The notes under the pieces were generated by a model. It searched no databases, had not been told where the DNA came from, and was given only the letters and a program-made list of their open reading frames with translations. A DNA stretch of 64,000 nucleotides from Escherichia coli (lineage in GTDB: Bacteria > Pseudomonadota > Gammaproteobacteria > Enterobacterales > Enterobacteriaceae), in NCBI RefSeq assembly GCF_036507355.1, contig NZ_AP027877.1, one strand, 5' to 3'. Position numbers and translations under genes: made by a program. Positions 35,650 through 38,600 of this stretch are shown in pieces (within the stretch, counting starts at the first letter, position 1; each line of letters starts with the position of its first letter).

Positions 35650-38600
35650 TTACGCCTTCTCGATGTTGACTAAGAACGCTTTATATTCCGGCGTTTGCGA
35701 GTTTGCATCACCGACATTCGGCGTCAGAGTGTTAGCGATATAACCTTTACGCGCGACACCCTCAAAGCCCCAGTGGATTGGAATACCCACCGTTTCAACC
35801 TGCTGACCATTTACATTCAGCGGTTTCAGACGACGCGTTACCACAGCCACCGCGCGGATAAAGCCACGCTTGCTTGAGACAGTGACACGATCGCCATTAT
35901 TAATGCCTTTCGCCGCCGCCAGCGTTTCGCTGATTTCCACAAACTGTTCCGGCTGAGCAATTGCGTTGAGCAATGCGTGCTTGGTCCAGGTGTGGAAGTG
36001 CTCGGTCAGACGATAGGTCGTACCCACATACGGGAACTGCTCTTTTTTACCCATCCGCAGTGCGTCTTGTTCATACAGACGAACAACCGGGTTAGACACC
36101 ACGTTCGGATGCAGCGGGTTAGTGCCCAGCGGCGTTTCAATCGGCTCGTAGTGTTCCGGGAACGGACCTTCCGCCATTTTGTTGATGGCAAACAGGCGTC
36201 CCATCCCTTCCGGCTGCATGATAAACGGCCCGGTTGGCGTACCCGGTGCGGCATTGCCGAAGTCAGGAATATCGTTACCCGTCCACTTGCTGCCGTTCCA
36301 CTGGATCAGCATCCGTTTCGGATCCCACGGTTTACCGTTGATATCCGCCGAAGCACGGTTGTACAGCACGCGACGGTTGAGCGGCCACGCCCAGGCCCAT
36401 CCCAGCGTATTCCCCAGACCGGACGGGTCGGAGTTATCGCGGTTAGCCATCTGGTTGCCCTGCTCTGTCCAGCTACCGGTGTAGATCCAGCAAGAAGATG
36501 CGGTTGTACCGTCATCACGCAGATGCGCAAAGCTACTCAGCAACTGACCTTTCTTCGCAATCAGCACGCCATTAGCATCATAGAGATCTTCCAGCGCATA
36601 GCCGTTGTTCTCTTTTGCCACTTCGTCAGATTGCGGTTCGTGCGGCTGCTTGTAGTTCCAGCTCATCTTCATCAGCGGTTCTACGCCTTTACCACCTTCG
36701 GCCTGGTACAGCTCGCGCAGATGATGGTAGATACCCGCCAGAATTTCGCCGTCGTTACGCGCTTCGCCCGGCGCGTCCTGACCTTTCCAGTGCCACTGCA
36801 ACCAGCGACCGGAGTTAGCGATAGAACCATCTTCTTCGGCAAAGCAGGTCGAAGGCAGACGGAATACTTCAGTCTGAATAGACGCCGGATCGACATCGTT
36901 CGACTCGCCGTGGTTCTGCCAGAAGGTAGAGGTTTCAGTCACCAGCGGATCGATAACCACCATGTACTTCAGTTTGCTCAGGCAGCTCACCACTTTGTTT
37001 TTGTCCGGGAAGGACGCAACCGGGTTAAAGCCCTGGCAGAAATAACCGGTGACTTTGCCTTCGTCCATCATGTTGAAATACTTGATGACGTCGTAGGTCT
37101 GGTCCCACTTCGGCAGCCAGTCATAGCCCCAGTTGTTCTCTTTCTGCGCGGCATCGCCATAGAAAGATTTCATCAGGCTAACGAAGAACTTCGGATAGTT
37201 GCTCCAGTAGTTCACCTGACCAGCCAGCGTTGCTTTCGGCGTGTTCGCTTCCAGATACGACTGCAAATCAACCTGTTTTTCTGACGGCAGCGTCAGATAA
37301 CCTGGCAGGCTGGTAGAGAGCAGGCCTAAGTCAGTCAGCCCCTGAATGTTGGAGTGACCACGCAATGCGTTCACGCCGCCACCGGCCATACCCATGTTAC
37401 CGAGTAGCAACTGGATCATCGCCATAGTACGGATGTTCTGCGCACCCACGGTGTGCTGCGTCCAGCCCAGCGCGTACAGGAAGGTGGTTGTGCGATCCGG
37501 TGCGCTGGTGGAGGCCAGCACTTCACACACTTTCAGGAAGTCGGCTTTTGGCGTACCGCAGATGTTTTCAACGACGTCCGGCGTGTAGCGGGAAACGTGC
37601 TCTTTCAGCAGGTTCCACACACAGCGCGGATGAGTCAGTGTTTCATCGCGTTTTGCATAGCCGTTTTCATCGAACTGATAGTTCCAGGACGATTTATCGT
37701 ATTGCCGTTTTTCAGCGTCGTAGCCGCTGAACAGACCGTCTTCGAAAGCAAAATCATCACGCACCAGCAAGCTGGCGTTGGTGTAATGCTTAACGTATTC
37801 AGCGTTGATTTTGTTGTTTTCGATCAGGTAGCGCAAAACGCCAGACAGGAACGTAATGTCCGTACCGGAACGAATAGGTGCGTAAATATCCGCTACAGAA
37901 GCGGTACGCGTAAAACGGGGATCGACAACGATCAAGGTTGCATCGTTGTTGTTTTTCGCTTCCATCGCCCAGCGGAAACCGACGGGATGCGCTTCAGCAG
38001 CGTTACCGCCCATTACCATTACGACGTTAGCGTTTTTGATATCCACCCAGTGGTTGGTCATCGCACCGCGACCAAATGTTGGAGCAAGACTTGCTACCGT
38101 TGGTCCGTGTCAGACGCGCGCCTGGTTGTCTACCGCCAGCATCCCGAGGGAGCGGGCAAATTTCTGGGTCAGCATCCCGGTTTCGTTGCTGGCACCGGAA
38201 GCACACAGCATACCGGTAGAAAGCCAACGGTTTACCGTTACGCCCTGCTCGTTCTTTTCAATAAAGTTAGCGTCACGGTCAGCTTTCATCAGCTTCGCAA
38301 TACGGGAGAATGCTTCTTCCCAGCTAATGCGCTGCCATTTGTCAGAACCTGGCGCACGATATTCCGGGTAGCGCAGACGGTTTTCGCTGTTGACGTAATC
38401 CAGCAAACCGGCCCCTTTCGGGCACAGCGCACCACGGCTTACCGGATGATCCGGGTCACCTTCAATGTGATAAATCGCTTCTCTGGCGTTTTTCGCGCCA
38501 TCACCCAGGCTATACATCAATAGCCCGCAACCTACGGAACAGTATGTGCAGGTGTTACGGATCTCTTTAGCGCGTAATAATTTGTAGTTTCGCGCCTGAG

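Follow-up and report, generated by a model that had tools for sequence, protein, structure and literature searches.

Closest described systems

Among bacterial SECIS elements, that of E. coli fdhF (FDH-H), represented by the Rfam family SECIS_2 (RF01988), is the one best studied experimentally. Its bulged-U and loop determinants, together with a minimal 17-nt hairpin located 11 nt after the UGA, reportedly go back to Huttenhofer et al. 1996 and Liu et al. 1998. The fdhF SECIS is bound by the WH3/4 domains of SelB (PMC7590224), in a source from which the bulged-U and loop determinants are absent. The fdhF element resembles that of fdnG, the subject of the present analysis, in its UGA, the 11-nt spacer, the bulged U at nt 17, the G-U at nt 23-24, and the intragenic location, and the peptide context R-V-U-H-G-P is common to both. 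The two differ in the hairpin, which has 17 nt and a GGUC loop in fdhF but 18 nt and a GUC loop in fdnG (AGUCU if the closing A-U pair is open), and the lower stem of fdhF is unlike that of fdnG. The selenocysteine of the fdhF product is residue 140 of a cytoplasmic enzyme of 715 residues. Against the SECIS_2 model, the window (the whole 64-kb stretch of DNA that was analysed) scores only 28.8 bits, compared with a gathering score of 70.

FdhF-like homologues with cysteine, found in Enterobacterales and other groups among the matches listed, provide a comparison for the active-site context, which reads R-V-C-H-G-P-S-V-A and is followed by about 575 open codons. Unlike fdnG, they carry a sense Cys codon (TGT/TGC) and are without a hairpin at +11.

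The fdnG element of E. coli was reportedly described by Berg et al. 1991 in J Biol Chem 266:22380, and the structure of the gene product is that of PDB 1KQF/1KQG. The selenocysteine codon of fdnG and its SECIS are already known, the element having been described in 1991 and forming a curated Rfam family. The fdnG of K-12 (b1474) is the same gene as that of the window, in the same operon, with the same neighbours and with TGA as codon 196. Its SECIS region is identical, and the 31 differences over the 3048 nt of the CDS (99.0% nucleotide identity) represent strain-level polymorphism only. In K-12 fdoG (FDH-O), TGA is likewise codon 196, and the SECIS, also of the SECIS_3 type, is identical base for base over 59 nt, with the same score of 84.3 bits. 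The alignment with the known fdnG and fdoG elements, proposed in the initial annotation as a check, agrees with its reading of the sequence. The fdnG and fdoG genes share 77% identity in protein and 75% in DNA, and their longest identical run is 71 nt, from codon 195 on. Where they encode the same amino acid, 19 of 20 codons are identical in the segment 194-214, as compared to 58% gene-wide. Unlike fdnG, the fdoG locus adjoins fdhD and its gamma subunit belongs to a model of the other type.

The interrupted gene

In the ORF list, fdnG appears as two pieces on the minus strand, 38110..38697 (195 aa) and 35650..38061 (803 aa), the former ending at a TGA and the latter beginning at the first ATG past it. 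Translated in a single frame, 38697..35650 (minus strand) comprises 1016 codons, in which the only internal stop, besides the terminal one, is codon 196, and the frame remains open for 819 codons beyond this UGA. The letters at 38110-38112 of the plus strand are 'tca', which is TGA on the minus strand. The split of the ORF track at an in-frame TGA had been noted in the initial annotation, and the number given there, codon 196, is exact because the one internal stop of the single-frame translation lies at that codon. The strand was left unstated; the feature lies on the minus strand. The gene and its operon partners have the following coordinates.

35650..38697, minus strand: fdnG, formate dehydrogenase-N alpha subunit (1015-residue frame including Sec196)
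38110..38112, minus strand: UGA codon 196, almost certainly recoded as selenocysteine (aligns with X196 of 1kqf_A)
35650-35652, minus strand: fdnG stop codon
34753..35637, minus strand: fdnH, iron-sulfur beta subunit (TIGR01582, 482 bits)
34107..34760, minus strand: fdnI, cytochrome b gamma subunit (NF007558, FDH-N gamma, 487 bits over 1-217 of 217)

A search of solved structures, with X at position 196, matched the fdnG product to PDB 1kqf_A over residues 1-1015 (2398 bits) with three substitutions, namely F/L near 342, G/D near 493, and A/S near 666. This chain is the major subunit of the nitrate-inducible formate dehydrogenase of E. coli (FDH-N alpha), residue 196 of which is established as the molybdenum ligand. 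The TGA sits opposite the non-standard residue X196 of the chain, and TGA is found at this codon in 109 of the 120 motif loci among the matches listed (see below), both in line with the original claim that it is the conserved selenocysteine codon of formate dehydrogenase-N. The two halves of the gene match contiguous positions of the NCBIfam model TIGR01553 (FDH-N alpha), 1-194 and 196-1009, with the TGA falling between profile positions 194 and 196. The C-terminal half alone reaches 1318 bits on this model, for which the curated cutoff is 814.

With the FDH-N model NF007558 the gamma subunit reaches 487 bits, versus 268 with the FDH-O type NF007924. The gene yddG lies upstream, followed by fdnG-fdnH-fdnI, and the placement of yddG and adhP corresponds to the E. 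coli gene order. RefSeq gives a single uninterrupted fdnG CDS both in the best E. coli match (99.4% identity) and in K-12, with yddG, fdnH, and fdnI as neighbours. Judged from its sequence, the interrupted gene is fdnG, encoding the catalytic, molybdopterin-containing subunit of the respiratory formate dehydrogenase-N. We have also considered fdoG, which is ruled out by the gamma-subunit model, the yddG/adhP neighbours, and the 99% identity to fdnG. Residues 4-10 of FdnG, S-R-R-Q-F-F-K, look by eye like a twin-arginine signal peptide, which would direct the protein to periplasmic export.

ORF callers that treat TGA as a stop split fdnG in two, and likewise fdoG and fdhF. The two fdnG pieces belong together as a single selenoprotein CDS, with codon 196 entered as a translation exception. 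The importance of the observation is confined to annotation, and new biology is not implied: the apparent stop is a well-known selenocysteine UGA with a textbook SECIS, and the observation is therefore correct but ordinary.

The SECIS element

The sequence around the UGA is matched by the Rfam model SECIS_3 with 84.3 bits, well above the gathering score of 63 (E = 2.7e-20), and this is the sole Rfam match at the gathering threshold within the 64 kb (E = 1.4e-18 for 64 kb). The match takes in the UGA, its first codon being Val195. The parts of the element are located as follows.

38057..38115, minus strand: match to SECIS_3 (Rfam RF01989), model positions 1-59 of 59, 84.3 bits
38081..38098, minus strand: upper (apical) hairpin GGUAGCAAGUCUUGCUCC, the putative SelB-binding part by analogy (folding and 61 homologues)
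38088..38090, minus strand: apical loop G-U-C, with G at nt 23 and U at nt 24 (U of the UGA = nt 1)
38096, minus strand: bulged U of the upper stem, at nt 17 in the same count
38100..38110, minus strand: 5' arm of the lower helix (the MFE register overlaps the last base of the UGA)
38065..38075, minus strand: 3' arm of the lower helix (MFE fold)

The upper hairpin, GGUAGCAAGUCUUGCUCC, consists of 18 nt, begins 11 nt past the UGA, and adopts the structure ((.(((((...))))))) at -4.5 kcal/mol. U17 is left unpaired by the MFE fold as well as by the consensus structures of Rfam and RNAalifold. According to published consensus criteria (PMC13188914), a bSECIS lies directly 3' of an in-frame UGA within the coding region, and its upper stem, 4-16 bp long, is capped by an apical loop of 3-9 nt with a G at position 1 or 2 that is usually followed by G or U. 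The UGA and the apical loop are 16-37 nt apart, and the minimum free energy is no higher than -7.5 kcal/mol. The fdnG element conforms to the whole of this description. Its hairpin is located inside the 46 nt following the in-frame UGA, within the coding sequence, the upper stem has 7 bp and one bulged U, the loop GUC has 3 nt (5 nt with the closing A-U unpaired) and starts with G-U, and the UGA is separated from the apical loop by 19 nt (alignment columns 7-25).

The segment singled out in the initial annotation, 38060-38112, is the TGA with the 50 nt 3' of it. These 53 nt form a stem-loop of -14.6 kcal/mol, and the 44-nt element one of -13.8 kcal/mol. The prediction that a stem-loop would be found downstream of the UGA therefore holds, but its energy is no better than that of dinucleotide shuffles (z = -0.67 for the 53 nt), which average -12.7 kcal/mol, so that the -7.5 kcal/mol criterion is weak when taken alone. 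The z value is +1.06 for 101 nt; trimming to the 44-nt element or to the apical hairpin of 18 nt gives a marginal -2.06 in either case. As the folding energy fails to discriminate, our case rests on the covariance model and the comparison of homologues.

Homologues were collected by a nucleotide-pattern search of other bacteria, which returned at least 120 loci and in which the pattern fixes much of the 5' arm. A match from Streptomyces was dropped as a chance match, its similarity being confined to the pattern. Among the matches listed, 11 of 120 loci have a Cys codon (TGT/TGC) instead of TGA, and none of these 11 has a Trp codon at the selenocysteine position. The frame flanking codon 196 is open for at least 196 codons upstream in the matches listed, and the downstream frame spans 800-849 codons in 53 of the 54 listed FdnG-type matches in which it is complete. 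Most of the listed homologues retain TGA, and the frame stays open on both sides of it, where a sense codon in a different frame would have counted against the earlier interpretation.

In the 61 distinct FdnG-type sequences among the matches listed, the upper helix is 99.5% paired, and two of its pairs are changed on both sides (29 cells): pair 21-33 occurs as GC, AU, or GU, and pair 24-30 as AU, CG, or GC. Both lie at third (synonymous) codon positions and vary across genera. For the same 61 sequences, none of 500 shuffles equalled the observed covariation score, and pairing fell from 92% to at most 49% when the partners were slid; RNAalifold recovered the upper helix independently. These comparisons, with the SECIS_3 score, argue for the proposal that the sequence 3' of the TGA is a SECIS element, and the upper hairpin appears to be maintained by compensatory change in the homologues. 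G26 and T27 of the loop (alignment numbering), which the search pattern left free, are invariant in the 61 distinct listed sequences, T27 being a third codon position (AGT/GGT). The bulged U, which occupies the second position of a Val codon, was fixed by the pattern, and its invariance is therefore uninformative.

The lower helix is 83-86% paired in the 61 listed FdnG-type sequences, and no convincing covariation was found in it across this set. In the Rfam SECIS_3 register, pairs A8-C48 and A12-G44 of fdnG are mismatched. The shifted (MFE) register, with C14-G43, C13-G44, A12-U45, and G11-C46 paired and G47 bulged, fits fdnG better, but fits the 61 listed sequences no better (86.3% versus 83.4% paired); pair 12-45 is a standard pair in only 17 of them. 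We suggest tentatively, and at somewhat less than even weight, that the lower helix of enterobacterial FdnG/FdoG-type elements pairs one base off the SECIS_3 consensus. If so, this helix would be either lineage-specific or outside structural selection altogether. The question bears solely on how the family model is drawn; the recoding is unaffected, and the choice of register is not known to matter for function.

Recoding of the UGA and alternative explanations

On the minus strand, the TGA at 38112..38110 almost certainly encodes Sec196 of fdnG, read via the SECIS and SelB to yield one selenoprotein, and no observation made here contradicts this. The mRNA 3' of the UGA, inside the coding sequence, folds into a bacterial SECIS stem-loop. 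As in the fdhF and fdnG elements studied in E. coli, its apical hairpin would be bound by the C-terminal domain of SelB carrying GTP and Sec-tRNA(Sec). SelB would then bring the Sec-tRNA(Sec) to the ribosomal A site, where release factor 2 competes for the UGA, and translation would run on for 819 codons to give the 1015-residue selenoprotein. We infer SelB binding, selenocysteine insertion at UGA 196, and the role of selenocysteine as Mo ligand from established knowledge and from the identity to the E. coli element. The 64-kb window contains none of selA, selB, selC, and selD, and its Rfam scan gave no tRNA or selC match; the selenocysteine machinery is therefore assumed from the organism, the window being E. 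coli (99.4% identity).

That the TGA could instead be a genuine stop, either in a pseudogene created by a nonsense mutation or a sequencing error or at the boundary of two genes, one with 195 residues and the other with about 803-819, is suggested by the mechanical ORF call and by nothing further. We regard it as extremely improbable. The TGA is shared by K-12 fdnG and fdoG, and 109 of the 120 listed matches combine it with long frames on both sides. Of 5426 complete E. coli genomes, 5425 contain the 91 nt around it, the best match having an identity of 99% or more for 5366 of the 5433 matching records. Moreover, the two halves map to adjoining parts of a single family profile and of a single crystal-structure chain, and a curated SECIS follows the TGA. 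A reading-through of the UGA without the selenocysteine machinery, by a near-cognate tRNA-Trp or a suppressor, with the hairpin merely slowing the ribosome, would be in keeping with the general leakiness of UGA, the leakiest stop codon in E. coli. The chance of this is likewise negligible: the hairpin has the SECIS features (G-U at 23-24, bulged U17, 11-nt spacing) and matches SECIS_3, the solved structure has a non-standard residue (X), not Trp, at the homologous position, and the 11 non-TGA listed homologues use Cys codons, never Trp.

A further alternative concerns one line of evidence rather than the reading of the UGA as selenocysteine itself, namely that the conservation near the codon reflects protein constraint or gene conversion between fdnG and fdoG alone, with no selection on RNA structure. 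In its favour are the high conservation of the peptide R-V-U-H-G-P-T-V-A, the resemblance of the 71-nt run shared by the paralogues to a conversion tract, and a lower helix without convincing covariation, so that part of the nucleotide conservation could stem from the conserved peptide (U-H-G-P-T-V-A) or from such conversion. As the whole explanation it is very unlikely, given the compensatory synonymous third-position changes in two upper-stem pairs across genera and the invariance of T27, also a third codon position, in the 61 distinct listed sequences. In addition, the Cys homologues have a similar peptide (HGPSVAG) but no hairpin at +11 in the 11 FdhF-type cases (TGY) among the matches listed. 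The mean folding energy at +11 in the listed matches is -1.3 kcal/mol for these Cys FdhF-type sequences, as compared to -5.7 kcal/mol for the TGA FdhF-type and -6.2 kcal/mol for the FdnG-type sequences.

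Identity of the gene and its internal TGA

The triplet tca on the plus strand at 38110-38112 corresponds to a TGA on the minus strand, at which the mechanical ORF list divides the gene:

38110..38697, minus strand: ORF piece of 195 aa, ending at the TGA
35650..38061, minus strand: ORF piece of 803 aa, starting at the first ATG past the TGA

Read in a single frame, 38697..35650 (minus strand) comprises 1016 codons, with one internal stop besides the terminator, and the split at codon 196 reported in the initial annotation is exact. The interval assigned there, 38060-38112, comprises the TGA together with the next 50 nt on its 3' side; the strand, which is the minus strand, was left unstated.

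The 1015-residue product (X at 196) aligns over residues 1-1015 with the E. coli chain 1kqf_A of the PDB, titled "formate dehydrogenase, nitrate-inducible, major subunit" (2398 bits, three substitutions), and a non-standard residue X of the chain lies opposite the TGA. The ORF pieces match positions 1-194 and 196-1009 of the NCBIfam equivalog TIGR01553 (formate dehydrogenase-N subunit alpha), and are therefore the two sides of a single missing profile position. The other two subunits are encoded downstream:

34753..35637, minus strand: beta subunit gene (TIGR01582, 482 bits)
34107..34760, minus strand: gamma subunit gene, fdnI (487 bits with the FDH-N model vs 268 with the FDH-O-type model)

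The divergent yddG lies upstream of fdnG, while yddM and adhP lie past fdnI. Over a 3.6-kb segment that includes the gene, several complete E. coli chromosomes share 99.4% identity with the window, and in these RefSeq annotates fdnG as one uninterrupted CDS between yddG and fdnH. The gene layout of K-12 at fdnG is the same as in these chromosomes, and the two fdnG sequences, of the window and of K-12, differ at 31 of 3048 nt, none of them close to the TGA. The earlier naming of the gene as fdnG, and of the TGA as its Sec codon, is borne out by the X of 1kqf_A, by TIGR01553 and by the single RefSeq CDS; for annotation, the two ORFs are to be joined into a single CDS in which codon 196 is Sec.

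The SECIS element

The element following the TGA is composed of the following features, the last two taken from the minimum free energy (MFE) fold:

38115..38057, minus strand: match to SECIS_3 (RF01989) along all 59 model positions, 84.3 bits (gathering score, 63)
38098..38081, minus strand: upper hairpin GGUAGCAAGUCUUGCUCC, in which one U is bulged and an A-U pair closes the GUC loop
38065-38110, minus strand: lower helix (columns 6-16 and 41-51 of the homologue alignment A1)

SECIS_3 was the only family at the gathering threshold when Rfam was scanned over the region and, separately, over the whole 64 kb; the fdhF-type model SECIS_2 gave 28.8 bits on the window, its gathering score being 70. 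As positive controls, K-12 fdhF was recognized by SECIS_2 (87.1 bits) and K-12 fdoG by SECIS_3, also with 84.3 bits. The suggested comparison with the known fdoG SECIS yields equal scores and 59 identical nt, and the element belongs to a curated Rfam family.

The fold, which consists of the lower helix and the upper hairpin, has an energy of -14.6 kcal/mol for 53 nt and -13.8 kcal/mol for the trimmed 44 nt. The upper hairpin begins 11 nt past the UGA codon, the bulged U being nt 17 and the loop G-U nt 23-24 when numbered from the U of UGA; this spacing and these positions are exactly those described for the E. coli fdhF SECIS. PMC13188914 quotes a general model of bacterial SECIS elements with four limits, and the element lies within all of them: a loop length of 3-9 nt and a stem length of 4-16 bp, a loop opening with G followed by G or U, a UGA-to-loop distance of 16-37 nt (here 19 nt), and an MFE of -7.5 kcal/mol or lower.

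Folding the RNA downstream of the UGA, the check proposed initially, does return a stem-loop, but the energy of the 53 nt is close to that of dinucleotide-preserving shuffles (z = -0.67). With 101 nt, z is +1.06, and the 44-nt and 18-nt pieces each give -2.06. Folding energy is a poor discriminator here, and the comparative evidence is stronger.

Comparative evidence

The pattern CGNGTNTGHCAYGGNCCNWCNGTNGC, which encodes R-V-(TGA/TGC/TGT)-H-G-P-(T/S)-V-A and leaves every base past the 5' half of the hairpin free, was scanned over a collection of species-representative genomes and found at at least 120 loci. Among the 120 matches listed, the codon is TGA in 109 and TGT or TGC in 11, a ratio that, in a sample gathered by nucleotide pattern, is no estimate of Sec and Cys frequencies. 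The matches listed divide into 97 FdnG-like (Thr codon), all with TGA, and 23 FdhF-like (Ser codon), with 12 TGA and 11 Cys codons. Counted among the former is a match to the 26-nt pattern with TGA on a contig of Streptomyces sp. ODS25 (L073, 509-534, minus strand), which is a coincidental match in high-GC DNA and was rejected as a selenoprotein gene owing to its low-complexity translation and the lack of downstream similarity. In the FdnG-like matches listed, the open frame extends over 196 codons or more upstream of the TGA, and past the TGA it continues for 800-849 codons in 53 of the 54 with a complete downstream frame.

No hairpin was found at +11 in the Cys-codon FdhF-like homologues among the matches listed (mean -1.3 kcal/mol, range 0 to -3.5), the means at this position being -5.7 kcal/mol for the TGA-containing FdhF-like and -6.2 kcal/mol for the FdnG-like sequences. 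The hairpin accompanies the TGA, not the peptide.

Alignment A1 contains 61 distinct FdnG-type 59-mers, taken from the matches listed and from the window. Its upper helix is paired at 99.5%, and RNAalifold independently gives the identical helix. Pairs 21-33 (GC 48, AU 9, GU 4) and 24-30 (AU 41, CG 17, GC 3) join third codon positions (Val GTN/Ala GCN and Ala GCN/Leu CTN, respectively), and their changes are compensatory and synonymous. None of 500 shuffles attained the covariation score or the pairing percentage of the real alignment, and shifting the 3' partners by 1-3 columns lowers the pairing from 92% to 26-49%. Loop positions G26 and T27, neither fixed by the search pattern, are invariant, T27 being a third codon position (AGT/GGT).

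The lower helix is paired at 83-86%, and no convincing covariation was found for it in either register among the 61 homologues. The MFE register in the window (C14-G43, C13-G44, A12-U45, and G11-C46, with G47 bulged) is the best one and is displaced by one base from the SECIS_3 consensus of Rfam, whose register leaves A8-C48 and A12-G44 mismatched on this sequence.

Within E. coli, 5425 of 5426 complete genomes contain the 91 nt around the site, and 5366 of the 5433 matching records have a best match with an identity of 99% or more. fdnG and fdoG share 75% DNA identity, and their longest identical run is the following (the next longest being 36 nt):

38040-38115, minus strand, compared with 3683-3741, minus strand, of the K-12 fdoG locus (L002): 71-nt identical run starting at codon 195

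At positions encoding the same amino acid, 19 of 20 codons are identical in codons 194-214 vs 58% gene-wide (binomial tail ~3e-4 by our own arithmetic, for an interval picked after inspection of the data). The run fits a constraint at the RNA level, but may also be a product of gene conversion between the paralogues.

The ORF list by itself would allow the TGA to be a true stop, with fdnG a pseudogene, or the pieces to be two separate genes. Given the frames that stay open past the TGA in the homologues and the single profile and structure spanning both pieces, these readings have essentially no support, and the same is true of a SECIS-independent read-through of the UGA. The TGA and hairpin are the known E. 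coli fdnG Sec codon and SECIS, as the initial annotation had correctly observed and interpreted.

Proposed decoding of the UGA, and neighboring genes

From established E. coli knowledge, we infer SelB binding and selenium insertion as follows. SelB with GTP and Sec-tRNA(Sec) would bind the apical hairpin via its C-terminal winged-helix domains; once the ribosome arrives at the UGA, which precedes the hairpin by 11 nt, the ternary complex thus tethered would compete with release factor 2 and decode the codon as Sec. Translation would then unwind the hairpin and continue through the rest of fdnG. In FDH-N (structure 1KQF), this residue is presumably the sixth ligand of the molybdenum of the bis-MGD cofactor. 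No sel genes were found within the 64-kb window, and the Sec machinery is therefore assumed from the organism. The fdhF SECIS is reported to be bound in vivo by the WH3/4 domains of SelB (PMC7590224), and the reference list of PMC13188914 names Berg et al. 1991 for the sequence of fdnGHI and for the evidence that opal codes for Sec.

Beyond yddG, the window carries an intact OmpC-family porin gene (40069-41169, plus strand, 366 aa; NF007841, 496 bits vs a cutoff of 484), called ompC in the best-matching RefSeq genome, whereas in K-12 this position is occupied by the short yddL fragment alone. Two tandem ORFs, 41333-42598 (421 aa) and 42640-43914 (424 aa), both on the plus strand, have Pfam leucine-rich-repeat matches (LRR_4, LRR_8) and no NCBIfam match at 1e-10; a single LRR gene, yddK, stands in their place in K-12. 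In the K-12 fdhF control locus (L003), four tandem Rfam naRNA4 (RF02564) matches, unrelated to SECIS, lie downstream of yjcO (25-432, plus strand). The HigA-family antitoxin gene yddM (33773-34057, plus strand, inside ORF 33695-34057) follows adhP by ~145 nt, with no partner toxin gene and no space for one. K-12 yddM likewise lacks a partner, unlike the best-matching genome, NZ_OZ197100.1, in which a RelE/ParE toxin gene adjoins yddM.
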